A stretch of 38,471 nt of DNA, from the UHGV virus genome UHGV-0091782; one strand, written 5' to 3'. A model generated the notes under the pieces. That model worked only from the letters and a program-made list of their open reading frames with translations. It had not been told where the DNA came from and searched no databases. This document shows, piece after piece, positions 28,278-33,141 of this stretch. Numbering within the stretch: the stretch's first letter is position 1; each line of letters begins with the position of its first letter. The position numbers were made by a program, and so were the translations under genes. This DNA is from a virus.

Positions 28278-29273
28278 TCAGGCCAGCACGCCAGTTGCCA
28301 GCGCACGATCGATAAAACGAAATATCAGCTCCAGTTGGGAGCCATACTTCTCTTCAAATGCCACGGTATCTGCATGCAGCTCGTCGTGATGCTTTCTGCA
28401 CAAAGGCAACACAAAGAGGTCATGCGCTTTTGTCCCCATTCCTCCCTGACCGTGACCTATCAGGTGGTGAGGATCATCAGCAGACTTTCCACAACATGCA
28501 CACGGCTGCGTCTTAACCCAGCGCGTGTACTTTTCGTTAACCCAGCGGCGACGTTTGGGGCGTAACATAAAAGACTCCGGCGACTCCGGATCCACTTTCA
28601 GCGCCAGCACCTTTTTCGCTTTATCCTGGATGATGCTGGTGGCAGGAACCGAAGGAACAAGGTCACTTTCCCGGGTGACAGACGGCACAACAGGCTTCGG
28701 TAATCTCAGTGCCTTACGGGCTGCACTTTCCGGTAAGGCATCCGCCAGGTCATTACGAACCAGCCACCAGCATAGTTCCGGCATTGTCACAACGTGACTA
28801 TCATCAAAACCGAGATCCCGACGCACAACAGACAACATCCAGCGGGCACAGTTATCCGTTGCCATTGATTCCAGCCGTTCCGTGAACTGATCGCGCAGCT
28901 GGTTATCGCAGTGCCAGCACAGACGGATTGCGCCCGGCGCGTGTCGCATTGTGGTCATGTTCTCGCTGTGCCAGTCGGAATGAGGCCACTGGCAGCCTTT
29001 TTCACGAAGTAACCAGCTTTCAAGACATTCCACTCCACCAGCACGACGGATCACTGCCTCATTGCGGAACACGGCCCGAACGGCAGGATCATCCGCCAGC
29101 GGTTGTGATGCTGCCGGAACGGCACCACTGGCGAAAGATGAATAACGTTCCGGCTCAGACTCCAGCAGGACACGCCCCTGCATAAACAGGGGCATCAGCT
29201 CTGAACCTGGTCTGAACAATACGATCCCCATACGCGGGGCAATTTCAGGGGTCAGTAGTGCTCTCACGGTCAC
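28278..29273 (-). CDS. Lambdoid nin-region protein (DUF968/YdfU-like) with C-terminal HNH-like Cys/His motif
   Basis: ...KTQPCACCGKSADDPHHLIGHGQGGMGTKAHDLFVLPLCRKHHDELH at the C-terminus; position between the replication and Q genes. Confidence 0.5.
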   Translation of the reverse strand: MTVRALLTPEIAPRMGIVLFRPGSELMPLFMQGRVLLESEPERYSSFASGAVPAASQPLADDPAVRAVFRNEAVIRRAGGVECLESWLLREKGCQWPHSDWHSENMTTMRHAPGAIRLCWHCDNQLRDQFTERLESMATDNCARWMLSVVRRDLGFDDSHVVTMPELCWWLVRNDLADALPESAARKALRLPKPVVPSVTRESDLVPSVPATSIIQDKAKKVLALKVDPESPESFMLRPKRRRWVNEKYTRWVKTQPCACCGKSADDPHHLIGHGQGGMGTKAHDLFVLPLCRKHHDELHADTVAFEEKYGSQLELIFRFIDRALATGVLA

Positions 29274-29274
29274 C

Positions 29275-30084
29275 TCAATGAACGGTATCGAGCAGCTTTA
29301 ACAGCTCAGGGAATCGGGATTCGAAGAAATGCGGCTGCGTCTCGCGCGGATTTGCGGGACTGGTGATGTTCTTGCCGAACATGCAGCCTTTCGCTGTCAG
29401 CGACCAGAATTTTTTGATGTTGTTAATCGCGGTACGGCTGTATCGTTCGCGTTGTTCAACGATCCCCAGCTTCACCATCTGGTGATATGCCTGATTAGCC
29501 GTCAGGCGGATACCATACTGCTTCAGCAGTGCACTCAGCGACAGCGTGGGGCGACTTGAGCCATCGTGTGCATCAGCAGGAGCATCAATGGCATAGCGCG
29601 GAGCCAGATTCGGTAAGCCAACAGCCTCCTGGAGTTTCTGACAGGCCCCAAGCACAGATGAGTTAGACAGGTTTAACTCCCGACGCATAAAGTCCAGCAG
29701 AATCACTCCAGCCTGCATCTTGTCAGCAGCCTGTCCGGATAATTTTTCCGGTGCGCTGGTTACCATGTCGAAAGTACGGATCACCTTCAGATGGAATGAC
29801 GGGCTGATCCACATTGCATAGGCATACACCAGTTCCTTACAGACATACGTTCCCCGTTCATTTCCCCCATGAATCACACTCACCGGGTCAACACCCAAAT
29901 TCTGGGTGTTGGTCAATTCATGAACAAGCTCAACAGTTTGTTGGCTGGAAAGAAACTTTCCTGGCTCCTTGGTTCTGGCATTTGCACCAGATGCTACTGC
30001 TGCGCGATGCAGATCGTTCAGGCTGTAACGACCATAAGCATCACGACGAACTTCAATACCATCAATGACCATCAGATTATTCAT
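29275..30084 (-). CDS. KilA-N domain protein
   Basis: N-terminal MVIDGIEVRRDAYGRYSLNDLHRAA...VIHGGNERGTYVCKELVYAYAMWISPSFHLKVIRTFD fits the KilA-N DNA-binding domain. Confidence 0.6.
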   Translation of the reverse strand: MNNLMVIDGIEVRRDAYGRYSLNDLHRAAVASGANARTKEPGKFLSSQQTVELVHELTNTQNLGVDPVSVIHGGNERGTYVCKELVYAYAMWISPSFHLKVIRTFDMVTSAPEKLSGQAADKMQAGVILLDFMRRELNLSNSSVLGACQKLQEAVGLPNLAPRYAIDAPADAHDGSSRPTLSLSALLKQYGIRLTANQAYHQMVKLGIVEQRERYSRTAINNIKKFWSLTAKGCMFGKNITSPANPRETQPHFFESRFPELLKLLDTVH

Positions 30085-30103
30085 ACTTCGTTTCTCCTCT
30101 TAA

Positions 30104-30493
30104 TCAGGCGGCTGCACCCGCCGTTTTCTCGTACTTACTGATAGTGATCTCGACCTTCCCTTCCGGGATAACCGGCCCCCACTCCACCAGCATTCTTTTC
30201 ACCTGGCTGTCGTCTTCCCACACACCCGCGTGGGTCAGGGCGTCAAACAGCGCCTTGTTATAGTTATCCAGATCGCGGATCCGGTTATCCGGTGGAAACA
30301 ACACGATCTCCACTGAAGCAGGTGCCGACGTTGGTTTCGGCAGACGACGTAACTGCTCAATGATGGCGGCACACGCCGCGCCCTGGAATTTGCGCCCCGC
30401 CGCGCTTATCAGGCTCTTACCTGCAAACGCCCCTTTGTTGGGGTGTCGCCAGTACGTGTTCACGCTGGGCGGAAAAGGCAGAATCAGCTTCAT
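30104..30493 (-). CDS. rusA: RusA-family Holliday junction resolvase
   Basis: MKLILPFPPSVNTYWRH...RDLDNYNKALFDALTHAGVWEDDSQV matches the RusA pattern. Confidence 0.8.
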   Translation of the reverse strand: MKLILPFPPSVNTYWRHPNKGAFAGKSLISAAGRKFQGAACAAIIEQLRRLPKPTSAPASVEIVLFPPDNRIRDLDNYNKALFDALTHAGVWEDDSQVKRMLVEWGPVIPEGKVEITISKYEKTAGAAA

Positions 30494-30816
30494 ACTTTCA
30501 GGCCCCTCTCATGTAACCAGTAGGCTGCACGCAGCCTAGCGTTTTCCTCACCGGCAAGCAGTGCGCGGATAATCCCGACCGCCTCGCTGTCGTCGTCCTT
30601 CACCGCGGTATGAAGCGTGATCCCCCGGGCCACGCCACGCTTTATCGTGATGACGCCTTTTTTCTCCAGTGCGCGAAGATGCTCCACCGCTGCATTCACT
30701 GAACGGTATCCCAGCATGGTTGCCACCTCCTGATTGGTTGGCGGGAAGCCACGTTCTTTCTGATAAGAAATCAGCATATCCAGCACCTGCTGCTGGCATT
30801 GAGTTAACGTCGTCAT
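30490..30816 (-). CDS. LexA N-terminal DNA-binding-domain protein lacking the S24 peptidase domain
   Basis: MTTLTQCQQQVLDMLISYQKERGFPPTNQEVATMLGYRSVNAAVEHLRALEKKGVITIKRGVARGITL parallels the LexA winged-helix domain; the C-terminal 40 aa are unrelated to the LexA protease. Confidence 0.55.
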   Translation of the reverse strand: MTTLTQCQQQVLDMLISYQKERGFPPTNQEVATMLGYRSVNAAVEHLRALEKKGVITIKRGVARGITLHTAVKDDDSEAVGIIRALLAGEENARLRAAYWLHERGLKV

Positions 30817-31304
30817 TAAGCCCCCACGTAATTCCCTGACAGATACCACTCTTCACCCGATGCAGCGCGCTTGCTGCTTTTCCGTAAACACCGCTCACGA
30901 CGCGCAAGAAAATTGTTTCGCTCTTGCTGGGAGTGGCTTTCACGGAATGCCGCCATCCACACCGTTGCAGCACGACGAAATAAGCCCCTGGACTCCAGTT
31001 CTTCCGCCTGGCGGGTCAGGCACAAAATCACCCGTGGGTCGTTAGTGCCGACATAGAAATTGCTCACAGGTCTGGATTCACGAACTGGTTGCGGTTCCGG
31101 CTCCTGCGGTATCTCAGTCAGGCGAGGGAAATGTCTGCGTGTATCCCCTTCACAACGGTGAGCCACACGCCCACTCTGACGTAACTTGCTTGCTGACTGC
31201 AGAACGCGCTGTCGTGAGTAACCTGCAAAAGCATCCGCAATGTCTCCGGAAGTACACCCCGGATGGGCTTCAATGAATTTCTGAACGTCATTCAAAAGAC
31301 TCAT
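30816..31304 (-). CDS. Putative regulator with PerC-like C-terminal motif
   Basis: ...AEELESRGLFRRAATVWMAAF... resembles the PerC-family signature as I recall it; start at ATG 31304. Confidence 0.4.
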   Translation of the reverse strand: MSLLNDVQKFIEAHPGCTSGDIADAFAGYSRQRVLQSASKLRQSGRVAHRCEGDTRRHFPRLTEIPQEPEPQPVRESRPVSNFYVGTNDPRVILCLTRQAEELESRGLFRRAATVWMAAFRESHSQQERNNFLARRERCLRKSSKRAASGEEWYLSGNYVGA

Positions 31305-31306
31305 GA

Positions 31307-32233
31307 TCACCCCCTGAATCCTGCCGGGATCTGGCTGTAGTCCACGTTGTCGTAACTGGCTTTAAAGTACGGGTCTTCGCGTTTTTCTGTGTACGTGCTG
31401 ACGGACGGTGATAAGCGCAGGGAAAGTTCATCCCATTTTTCCCGCAATTTCGATGGGCTGAGGACGTTACGGCACCAGAACGGGTCACGACTGACGCGGC
31501 TGTACATCTCGCAGATTTGTTTGTGAGTGCGACCATCCTGAACACACATCAGGCGAATTTCGTTTGCCCAGGCTGTCCAGTTTGGTTCTTTGGGACGAAC
31601 CACCTCGCCGTCACATTCGGCGGCCTGCTCGTACAGGGCTATGATTTTTTTCCAGAGCCACTGTGCGCAGGTCAAATCATCCTGCGTTCCCCACTGGCGC
31701 TTTTTAGGGCTGAATACAACCGCATCAGGATGGCGAGTTAAAAAATCCTGTTCAGCCTTCTGCGTGTCCGGTTGCGAAGCGTCCGGACGAGAAGGTTTTT
31801 TATCTGACGGATCATGTTTTGATTTTACTGACGGATCCCCGCCAGATTCTGACGGGTGAAAACCCGCTTTTTTGCCAGATTTCGACGCATCAAATTTTGA
31901 CGGGTCAGATTTTGACGGGTCAGAATCTGACAGTTGAGAAAGTGCCGCAGCCTGAAGCTTTGCAACGTTAAGCTGATAGACGTTCGACGCATTGCGGTTA
32001 CCCTGTCGACGCGCCTTACGCGTTAACCAGCCTTCTGCTTCCAGCCGTGCGATAGCCGTTCTTACAGTACTCACCCCTGCGCCAATCTGGCGGGCAATGG
32101 TTTCAATTGATGGCCAGCACACACCTTCGTCATTACTGAAATCAGCCAGGCGGGCCATAATTGCCACACTGGATAATTTCATGCCTGACGCTGCGCAACC
32201 ATCCCATACATAGCCGGTTAATTTAGTGCTCAT
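31307..32233 (-). CDS. Putative replication initiation protein (N-terminal winged-helix/HTH domain, internal iteron-encoded repeat linker)
   Basis: Position downstream of the cro/cII-like genes; HTH-like N-terminus; repeated DPSKSDPSKFDASK... segment encoded by the TGACGG iterons. Confidence 0.55.
   Translation of the reverse strand: MSTKLTGYVWDGCAASGMKLSSVAIMARLADFSNDEGVCWPSIETIARQIGAGVSTVRTAIARLEAEGWLTRKARRQGNRNASNVYQLNVAKLQAAALSQLSDSDPSKSDPSKFDASKSGKKAGFHPSESGGDPSVKSKHDPSDKKPSRPDASQPDTQKAEQDFLTRHPDAVVFSPKKRQWGTQDDLTCAQWLWKKIIALYEQAAECDGEVVRPKEPNWTAWANEIRLMCVQDGRTHKQICEMYSRVSRDPFWCRNVLSPSKLREKWDELSLRLSPSVSTYTEKREDPYFKASYDNVDYSQIPAGFRG
31801..31933. repeat. Iteron array (5 perfect and 2 variant copies of an ATYTGACGGRTC-type motif) inside the replication gene; candidate origin
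   Basis: tgacgg at 31805, 31829, 31850, 31898 and 31913; variants ttcgacgc at about 31880 and tctgacag at about 31925. Confidence 0.5.
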
Positions 32234-32581
32234 GACCGACCTCTATTTCCCTGAATTTACGACGAAACTGTTCGAGCGGGCTGAAGCACTCATGCTCATA
32301 GCCTTCGCGGAGGTAGATAACACGTTGTGTTTCCGGCTCCCAACGAATGACTCTGACGGGCACTCCGTAGTGATCTTTGAACCAGCGGTTAACTTGTCGC
32401 AAAGGACTGTCTCCTTCTGCCGGTTGAAATCACCCACAGCCCACTCTGCAAAGCTGTGGGTTACAATTTCCCTGTCACCTGGTACATTTACTGCATAGCA
32501 ATACTCCACCTTCGCTTTTCCACCCGGTACAGGAAGCGCAATCAGTTGCGAGCGACGGTAGTGTGTTGTTAAACTGTTCAT
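32222..32581 (-). pseudogene. Early gene with frame break: N-terminal about 60 aa in one frame, conserved-looking C-terminal about 56 aa in another frame
   Basis: The track ORF 32243..32581 ends in Ser-rich junk, while a second frame reads ...[54 protein letters not shown] with no ATG of its own; frame switch near 32395-32432. Confidence 0.4.
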
Positions 32582-33141
32582 GCGTTAGTTTCTCCACAGT
32601 CACGACACGCCACGGCGCCCGGAGCTGCACACTCGCGGGCGTCACTACTTTCTGAAACGCAAAAGATTTTGTAGACCAGTGCTGCATGCTCCTGCAGCTT
32701 CGAAATTGAGAGGTACAGCTCATCGTTAATTGCTGTCTTCTCATGCGGTTCCACTACACCGTCTTCAATTGCTGAACGAATCTGTTTTGAATAACTGCCG
32801 ATCTGTTCAATGACTTCCAGCAGGCGTTGGTTGATATCGGCGTTGTCCACATCCTCGACGTCAGGAAGAGACACAAAGACGCCATTTGCAGACTGCGCCA
32901 CAGCATCAGCAATGAAGTGAGTGCCACCAGCACGCTGTAAAACCATTGCCCATCCCAGCGGGAAAATCTGATCGCCATCTGCACGAAGGCGGTTGAATAA
33001 AGCGTTTTCTGTTACATCGAGCCAGTCAGCCGCTTCAGCGTAACCACCCGGCAACGCCGCGATAGTTTTTCTGACAGCTTTCACGTACCACTCAGGCTGT
33101 TTTTCTATTTTCCAGTGATGCTTACCCACGGTTAGCCTCAT
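32578..33141 (-). CDS. Hypothetical regulatory protein at the cII position (possibly YdaT-like)
   Basis: Synteny only: immediately after the Cro/YdaS-like gene, ATGA-coupled to the next gene. Confidence 0.35.

Follow-up and report, generated by a model that had tools for sequence, protein, structure and literature searches.

A probable replication origin within the initiator gene of an SfII/SfIV-like prophage, and a possible bipartite origin layout among HTH_36 initiators

Introduction

Where does a temperate phage begin to copy its genome, and how would it bring in the host helicase, when its early region offers an initiator gene and no recognizable helicase loader? We address this question for UHGV virus genome UHGV-0091782, a stretch of 38,471 nucleotides (nt) that is here called the window in its entirety and that resembles an SfII/SfIV-type temperate phage genome. 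Its rep gene, at positions 31307-32233 on the minus strand, contains a cluster of short repeats that an earlier note, made from the letters alone, had proposed as an iteron array and candidate origin, in parallel with the lambda origin inside gene O. From sequence comparison, we consider it probable that this SfII/SfIV-like prophage replicates from a cis-acting origin at positions 31803-31930 and that this origin lies within the linker-coding part of its own initiator gene.

An origin inside an initiator gene is already textbook for lambda, and the anatomy of the lambda origin and the O/P mechanism serve as the model for our proposal (PMC5043065, PMC7466680). SfIV has been isolated and characterized, with a complete genome (PMC3851460), and initiators of the HTH_36 type, to which the rep product (Rep) belongs by its N-terminal domain, are recognized from small plasmids (PMC6209633, PMC4224046). 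Of related non-lambdoid replication modules, the most specific paper that we found reports that their mode of replication is entirely unknown (PMC8951638). In a literature search that left most subscription-journal papers outside, we found no origin or iterons described for SfII, SfIV, SfV, mEp460, or HTH_36 phage Reps; nor did we meet the GAACCGTCA motif, treated below, in the role of an origin element. The cassette that comprises the Rep N-domain and the repeat array is present in 2,107 of 5,426 complete Escherichia coli genomes (∼39%) and also in serotype-converting Shigella phages; RefSeq annotates the gene, in the rows shown, only as “helix-turn-helix domain-containing protein.”

Results

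Two classes of repeats lie in the middle of rep

The hexamer TGACGG occurs on the plus strand at 31805, 31829, 31850, 31898, and 31913, accompanied by the variants CGACGC at 31883 and TGACAG at 31928. With 22 plus-strand copies in the whole window, 0.076 would be expected per 133 bp (Poisson P for five or more, ∼2e-8), and other 133-bp segments hold two at most; the longer pattern TGACGGRTC matches four times in the array versus 0.52 expected across the whole window. Tandem Repeats Finder reports a 15-bp period at 31876-31931, and a separate repeat search gave the same families. The array occupies nt 301-433 of the 927-nt gene, and its hexamers are spaced by 24, 21, 33, 15, 15, and 15 nt, all multiples of three. 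On the coding (minus) strand the hexamer reads CCGTCA, within GAY-CCG-TCA, or Asp-Pro-Ser, and the encoded linker peptide is SDSDPSKSDPSKFDASKS...HPSESGGDPSVKSKHDPSD. The repetitive DPSK-type linker described by the earlier note is visible as D-P-S repeats on the coding strand. Its count of five perfect and two variant copies holds for the TGACGG hexamer and fails for the 12- to 15-bp contexts, which differ from one another, only two 15-mers being identical.

The “TGACGG-centred” consensus of that note needs correction: it lumps together two classes of repeat, and in the tandem units no part is less conserved than the CGG triplet. Class A is a 15-bp tandem unit, TCARAATCTGAY, whose variable part is precisely its “CGG” triplet. 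Its core is a 12-mer, TCA-RAW-TCT-GAY, which recurs at a strict 15-bp period and is built from the inverted pentamers TCAGA/TCTGA; unit 1 contains TCAGAtTCTGA, a perfect 11-bp palindrome. The five class A 12-mers, four in tandem and one isolated, span nt 304-393 of rep. Class B comprises three GAYCCGTCAG sites, nearly invariant and spaced by 21 and 24 nt, which show only one good half-site; within class B site 2, the codons GAT, TCA, and GTA are invariant among the homologues described below and CCG is present in 36 of 37. The most A+T-rich 40-mer of rep overlaps the last two class B sites and is the easiest-melting part of the gene (all coordinates in Table 1).

Two further features touch the array. 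Two Dam sites (GATC, at 31810-31813 and 31834-31837) sit within the invariant GATCCGTCAG sites, and a link of methylation to origin control is possible. A terminator-like hairpin, CGGGTGAAAACCCG followed by T6, lies at 31853-31876 on the plus strand, antisense to rep and between the two repeat tiers; it is probably fortuitous because the spacer that holds it is not conserved in homologues.

Selection in the array acts on nucleotides

We compared 37 homologous genes, 36 of them fetched from a collection with one genome per species, from Escherichia, Shigella, Citrobacter, Enterobacter, Kosakonia, Yersinia, Erwinia, Tatumella, and Providencia; the fetched homologues have 58-95% protein identity over the N-domain and linker. 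The N-domain coding region is gapless across all 37. Where the residue is conserved in this region, the major codon accounts for a mean fraction of 0.55, and 0.95 is reached in none of the 57 columns, so that synonymous sites are saturated, whereas the linker segment F-D-P-S-E-S-G-G-D-P-S-V has a mean of 0.92, with 7 of its 12 columns at 0.95 or more, the two Gly codons between the motifs being the exceptions to codon fixation. As DNA, TTT[C/G]ACCCGTCAGAATCTGG.GGGGATCCGTCAGTAAA is near-invariant in the 37 genes, and the TCAA that follows is well conserved. Because synonymous sites are saturated in the N-domain and nearly frozen in the array, the constraint acts on DNA.

The tandem units carry the same signature. 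Among 201 units found by an S-K-S-D-type peptide pattern (207 by DNA similarity), the first Ser (Ser1) is encoded by TCA in 92% versus 16% elsewhere in these genes, the second (Ser3) by TCT in 89% versus 9%, and Lys by AAA in 100% versus 61% (Fisher P ∼1e-90, which is descriptive only, as units and sequences are not independent). By contrast, the 3-nt spacer varies among the 207 units (CCG, GCA, GCG, ACG, GGG, GTA, and others), and the residue that it encodes changes freely (P/A/T/G/V) between constant flanking nucleotides. Since codons are fixed while spacer nucleotides and residue vary, we conclude from the alignment that the array is under nucleotide-level selection and that the selected object is the nucleotide string. 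The earlier reading of the repeats as a DNA-level element gains firm ground from the fixed codons of the units and from frozen synonymous sites beside a saturated N-domain. Copy number of the 12-mer, tandem and isolated together, ranges from 4 to 8 per gene in homologues, and the SfIV array has exactly one unit more than the window.

The array travels with the DNA-binding domain

At 29000-31803 and 32228-32702 the window and phage mEp460_4F5 have 92-95% identity; across 31804-32227 the two are unrelated, and the phage has there a different N-domain and six GGTCAAARTG repeats with a 23-bp period that are read in all three frames. Citrobacter phage phiNP shares 31770-32328 with the window but carries a different C-domain, and in phiNP and most enterobacterial homologues the same N-domain and array are joined to a PF09524 C-domain. 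Judged from these mosaics, the array travels with the Rep DNA-binding domain as one cassette.

In mEp460_4F5 (rep nt 290-490; L003 3500-3690), the six repeats are followed by three A+T-rich 12-mers, ACAGAGAATACA / ACAGAGATTACT / ACAGAGAATAAA, that end just before the junction with the shared C-domain, a clearer layout of iterons plus unwinding repeats than that of the window. Half-gene matches in E. coli ECDA1023 and ECGI0523 (L040-L044) were considered as N-domains without an array and rejected, as each is really one gene split by rearrangement. The break in these split rep genes of some E. coli, K-12-type genomes among them, falls after codon 78, with the N-terminal part fused to a terminase large-subunit fragment (ymfN, e14 type); the remaining gene with the array is >1 Mb away, a prophage rearrangement that separates the predicted origin from the N-domain.

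Rep joins an HTH_36 head to a lambda-O-type domain

Shigella phages SfIV and SfII and several Escherichia phages carry a gene for a “replication/primosomal protein” to which the rep DNA is 95% identical, and the early region outside rep has 97% alignment identity to SfIV. With PHROG 391, “replication initiation O-like,” the match extends over the whole protein (E=1e-133). Rep amino acids (aa) 23-70 match Pfam HTH_36 (PF13730) with 46.5 bits versus a gathering cut-off of 25 (E=3e-12); weaker Pfam matches of the N-domain are to other winged-helix families, including DnaD_N and RepC_N, and a sequence search of PDB with Rep gave only weak MarR/PaaX winged-helix matches, to the N-domain. By BLASTP, Rep aa 126-272 align with lambda O aa 139-270 (36% identity, E=7e-26), and the N-domain has no significant alignment to the lambda O N-terminus; the C-domain matches no Pfam family even at E≤10. 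Because the N-domain matches HTH_36 while only the C-terminal part is homologous to lambda O, Rep is, by its sequence matches, a chimera in which a Ser/Asp/Pro/Lys-rich linker connects an HTH_36 DNA-binding head to a lambda-O-type tail domain.

The last 76 nt of rep have 96-97% identity with SfV, mEp460, and other phage records (among those listed, cdtI, 1720a-02, and one Stx2-converting phage). The encoded C-terminus, ...(D)YSxIPxGFR(G/S), is kept in enterobacterial Reps (L005-L035) with C-domains of lambda-O, PF09524, or SfV type, and it is absent from lambda O and from longer Rep variants of 335-374 aa. A host factor may dock on this short conserved motif.

Distant HTH_36 rep genes have a bipartite repeat layout

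We examined at least 35 distant HTH_36 rep genes from Pseudomonas, Achromobacter, Pigmentiphaga, Thorsellia, and others (28-41% identity); the bipartite intragenic repeat architecture described here is defined in this analysis and is not a curated family. Nearly all of these genes have 4-8 copies of a 10-mer of their own at nt 240-400, spaced first 16-17 and then 22-23 bp, whereas no 10-mer exceeded four copies in 58 flanking control segments. Right after these iterons comes a second, lineage-independent element, 2-4 copies of GAACCGTAA, GAACCATCA, or GAACCGTCA with a 10- to 12-nt period and in different frames. All 77 matches to it fall at nt 300-500 of the genes, versus 0.043 per kb in the flanks, and in GC-rich hosts it coincides with the AT maximum of the gene. 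In sequences L045-L083 and L086-L165, a short-period repeat region lies at nt 300-700 of the rep open reading frame (ORF).

For the reverse test, 2.9 million viral contigs were scanned with the DNA pattern GAACCGTNANNGAACCNTCA. The instance lies within an HTH_36-type ORF, on the coding strand, in 68 of the 82 cases examined, and in at least 8 of the remaining 14 the stored sequence ends within the ORF. Counted as distinct loci, 54 of 62 show 4-7 lineage-specific repeats within the 220 nt on the upstream side, and as many were seen downstream in none of the 62. As DNA alone, the GAACCGTCA-type pattern is nearly diagnostic of HTH_36 rep genes in viral contigs. The class B sites of the window (CACCCGTCA, GATCCGTCA, and GATCCGTCA) share the core GAnCCGTCA with the family element.

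Other origin indicators and neighboring genes

DnaA boxes (TTATCCACA, ≤1 mismatch) are absent from 31307-32233, and the 15 in the window as a whole are not above chance. The duplex-stability profile has no strong unwinding element, and a local DNA alignment of the post-array region with the A+T-rich and palindrome region of lambda scored 25 versus a shuffle maximum of 26, which is not significant. GC skew was also considered and rejected as an origin indicator; its cumulative minimum at ∼33-34 kb is uninformative because it coincides with the divergence of gene orientation at cI/cro.

Pfam scans found no P, DnaC, DnaB, or primase domain in the ORFs between the repressor gene and Q or in the left-operon ORFs. 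From repressor to Rep, the ORFs scanned were cro-like, CII-like, a 112-aa ORF without a Pfam match (32243-32581), and an overlapping 59-aa DUF4222 ORF (32223-32402); downstream of rep are PerC-like, LexA-DNA-binding-like, RusA, KilA-N, DUF968/HNH, and Q genes. In the annotation of the complete SfIV genome, rep is the sole replication gene, and no P, DnaC, DnaB, or primase is annotated. The early-region scans and the SfIV annotation thus agree with the remark in the earlier note that no DnaC- or DnaB-like loader gene is evident downstream.

At the position of lambda P stands a 164-aa ORF (30816-31310, minus strand) with a PerC/ANR-like C-terminal half, which overlaps the rep stop codon (GTGA). 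It has no similarity to P in Pfam, PHROG, and NCBIfam scans, and in phages of the SfV and mEp460 type it and the final 76 nt of rep travel together as one module. The large genes after rep in enterobacterial homologues encode Dcm- or Dam-type methylases or ParB-like proteins. A Dam-/Dcm-type methylase is the first or second gene after rep in L014, L009, and L010 (those tested with Pfam), and a methylase is annotated downstream of rep in phiNP, SfV, and mEp460_4F5. Among distant HTH_36 relatives, the gene directly after rep encodes a DnaB-like helicase in L056 and L059 and a lambda-P-like protein (PF06992) in L080, by Pfam; in L074, a 459-aa ORF after rep resembles the helicase ORFs of L056 and L059, the Pfam scans having covered the latter two. 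The helicase-recruitment partner is exchangeable in the HTH_36 rep family. Because distant relatives encode a DnaB-like or lambda-P-like protein after rep, this phage group is truly peculiar in combining a lambda-O-type C-domain with the lack of a loader gene.

Elsewhere in the window, positions 1-7000 have a G+C content of 35-44% versus 50-58% in the rest, which suggests that the first 7 kb are a foreign cargo module at one prophage end; in SfIV, O-antigen modification genes adjoin the integrase.

Table 1. Features of rep and its repeat array (window coordinates)
Feature	Position	Strand	Basis or remark
rep, 308 aa, 927 nt	31307-32233	minus	ORF; HTH_36 N-domain, low-complexity linker, lambda-O-like C-domain
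N-terminal winged-helix domain, aa 1-95, presumed origin-binding domain	31949-32233	minus	Pfam matches
Lambda-O-like C-terminal domain, aa 166-272	31418-31738	minus	BLASTP versus lambda O
C-terminal tail ...DYSQIPAGFRG, common to Reps with unrelated C-domains	31310-31381 (Rep aa 285-308)	minus	Sequence comparison
Exchangeable cassette, N-domain and repeat array	31804-32227	minus	Mosaic comparison with mEp460_4F5 and phiNP
Tandem tier, four class A 12-mers	31874-31930	minus	Repeat finding, homologue comparison
Class A unit 1, TCAGATTCTGAC	31919-31930	minus	
Class A unit 2, TCAAAATCTGAC	31904-31915	minus	
Class A unit 3, TCAAAATTTGAT	31889-31900	minus	
Class A unit 4, TCGAAATCTGGC	31874-31885	minus	
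Class A isolated fifth unit, TCAGAATCTGGC, overlaps first CCGTCAG site	31841-31852	minus	Near-invariant in 37 homologues
Class B site 1, CACCCGTCAGA (TGACGG at 31850)	31848-31858	minus	Homologues mostly GACCCGTCAGA; matches family-wide GAACCGTCA core
Class B site 2, GATCCGTCAGT, has GATC (TGACGG at 31829)	31827-31837	minus	Near-invariant in homologues
Class B site 3, GATCCGTCAGA, has GATC (TGACGG at 31805)	31803-31813	minus	Homologues: GATCC(G/A)TCAG
Most A+T-rich 40-mer of rep, 70% AT, candidate unwinding region	31790-31829	.	At C-domain-proximal end of repeats

Discussion

A candidate mechanism

From the layout of the locus we infer Rep binding, unwinding, origin firing, and a mode of helicase recruitment that might proceed as follows. 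Rep would be made from the early (cro-side) transcript, which would also cross the origin. Its HTH_36 winged helix would bind the four 15-bp tandem units and the three GAYCCGTCAG sites, and the bound protein could form a multimeric complex like the lambda “O-some.” That complex would destabilize the adjoining A+T-richest stretch, aided by supercoiling and by early transcription through the site, after which the lambda-O-like C-domain and/or the IPAGFRG tail would bring in host DnaB-DnaC, directly or through a partner. Because the phage encodes no P, DnaC, or DnaB, Rep would have to recruit these host proteins.

Several observations weigh against an origin at this site. The tandem period of the window is 15 bp and in frame, versus 17 and 22-23 bp in relatives. 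The class B sites can be taken either as second-tier iterons, by their spacing of 21 and 24 nt rather than 10-12, or as the family-wide post-iteron element, by sequence, and we count this ambiguity on the same side. The free energy of 31790-31829 is below the window’s 95th percentile for melting ease, and its 70% AT compares with 80% in lambda. The codon statistics come from related sequences and duplicated repeats, so that P values overstate independence; the contrast with the N-domain within the same genes is the safer, robust part of that argument. From the window alone, a protein-level repeat would be a fair rival, and the comparative data are needed to exclude it. Finally, the AlphaFold2 model of Rep (25-sequence alignment) has a mean pLDDT (predicted local distance difference test) of 47 and is too poor to use.

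Alternative explanations

The best-surviving alternative, which we judge unlikely, is that the repeats are Rep-binding sites mainly for regulation, through autorepression, a roadblock to rep transcription, or copy control by handcuffing, and that the origin lies elsewhere. The rep transcript does include the sites, the A+T-rich region beside them is weak, and in iteron plasmids the same sites serve initiation and control (PMC5043065). However, the window has no other repeat cluster of comparable strength, the position of the array matches the mapped origin of lambda, and the family-wide succession of iterons and then a short-period repeat in a local AT maximum is origin-like. Regulation and initiation are, moreover, compatible and not mutually exclusive.

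We give very little credence to a slippage-generated coding repeat that serves as a flexible Ser/Asp/Pro/Lys linker between the Rep domains and has no function as DNA. Spacings that are all multiples of three, a regular SDxSK peptide, copy number that varies by whole units, and a linker for which the (poor) model predicts no structure are what such a repeat would produce, yet the codon data contradict it: synonymous positions are fixed, while the residue of the variable triplet changes. Furthermore, the arrays of relatives are read in three frames, and the array is swapped along with the DNA-binding domain.

Equally improbable is conservation for an RNA-level element or an internal or antisense promoter (mRNA structure, antisense RNA, or a downstream start site). 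The RNA of 31780-31950 has a more favorable fold than its shuffled versions (z=-3.7), but this fold follows from the inverted pentamers, and a copy number that varies between 4 and 8 12-mers per gene would not keep one fixed RNA structure. The one sigma-70-like match, on the plus strand at 31897-31926, is at the chance level (1 found versus 0.9 expected), and the terminator-like hairpin at 31853-31876 is in a non-conserved spacer, with 4 such hairpins overall versus 1.4 expected; an Rfam scan of 31000-32600 at E≤1 gave no match.

Least credible of all is a module-junction sequence homogenized by recombination among mosaic phages and devoid of its own function: mosaic breakpoints do fall at the promoter-distal array end (∼31770-31806), but on its N-domain side the conserved stretch borders DNA whose synonymous sites are saturated across 37 lineages of many genera, recombination without selection is insufficient because frozen synonymous sites adjoin saturated ones, and the internal repeat structure and family-wide motif are left unexplained.

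A possible family-wide origin type

A wider proposal can also be entertained, which we put forward tentatively and hold to be somewhat doubtful on balance. HTH_36 initiators of temperate phages across Proteobacteria may share an undescribed bipartite intragenic origin, in which lineage-specific iterons are followed by a universal GAACCGTCA short-period repeat; the latter would serve in unwinding or helicase entry and be recognized, possibly in single-stranded form, by a conserved surface of Rep. In the SfII-SfIV group, which is very common in E. coli and Shigella and has a lambda-O-type C-domain but no P, the O-type domain or the IPxGFRG tail might contact host DnaB/DnaC directly.

The locus matters for several reasons. 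It offers a clean example of dual coding, in which a predicted DNA-binding array is written into a protein linker. The predicted origin, once located together with its specificity cassette, gives a handle for annotation, prophage replicon typing, and Rep/ori vectors, and in metagenomic viral contigs the GAACCGTCA signature can serve as an easy DNA-level marker of such origins. It also makes testable the question of how a lambda-O-type domain loads the host helicase without P.

Comparison with known origins

Initiator-bound repeats within the coding sequence of the initiator itself are also a feature of P22 gene 18, SPP1 gene 38 (oriL), and the rep gene of lactococcal TP901-1, where they lie between a DNA-binding N-domain and a partner-binding C-domain. 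These phages encode a helicase and/or a loader beside the initiator, whereas this prophage does not.

Iteron plasmids (RK2 oriV/TrfA, P1, pSC101, and R6K) resemble the proposed arrangement in having replicon-specific initiator sites beside a short-period repeat in the unwinding region, which in these plasmids consists of repeated 13-mers, and they offer a precedent for a Rep that also reads one strand of that region (PMC4081077, PMC5043065). They differ in that their iterons lie outside rep and bind monomers, while the window repeats are inside rep; in that DnaA boxes are usual, while the window rep has none with ≤1 mismatch; and in a typical period of ∼22 bp (direct repeats of ∼17-22 bp) versus 15 bp in the window.

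The Stx phages 933W and P27 have six iterons in O, a number that varies among relatives and of which the extra iterons are needed for replication (PMC7466680). As is predicted for rep, with its 4-8 12-mers, the origin is in the middle of an O-type gene and copy number differs between relatives; unlike rep, which has another binding domain and no P, these are true lambda O/P systems with lambda-type iterons.

The likeness to lambda itself is stronger than the earlier note claimed, given the homology of the Rep C-domain to O and the position of the repeats in mid-initiator gene, at nt 349-433 of 900 in lambda and 301-433 of 927 in rep. Internal inverted symmetry, a trait of lambda-type repeats that each bind an initiator dimer, is seen in the class A units, and the class B sites show one good half-site. 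In both systems the A+T maximum of the gene follows the repeats (a 40-mer of 80% AT in lambda and 70% in rep), and the origin, a predicted one in rep, is transcribed from an early promoter. The differences are these: the N-domain of Rep is HTH_36 and not that of lambda O; lambda has four 18- to 19-bp iterons spaced 20-24 bp, whereas rep has a 15-bp in-frame tandem and sites 21 and 24 bp apart; lambda has the loader P, whereas the window has no P or other loader or helicase gene; and Rep has the extra conserved C-terminal tail IPAGFRG. In both systems the N-domain and repeats together act as the specificity module. In lambdoid phages, origin specificity is defined by this same logic, the head domain and its sites moving together.

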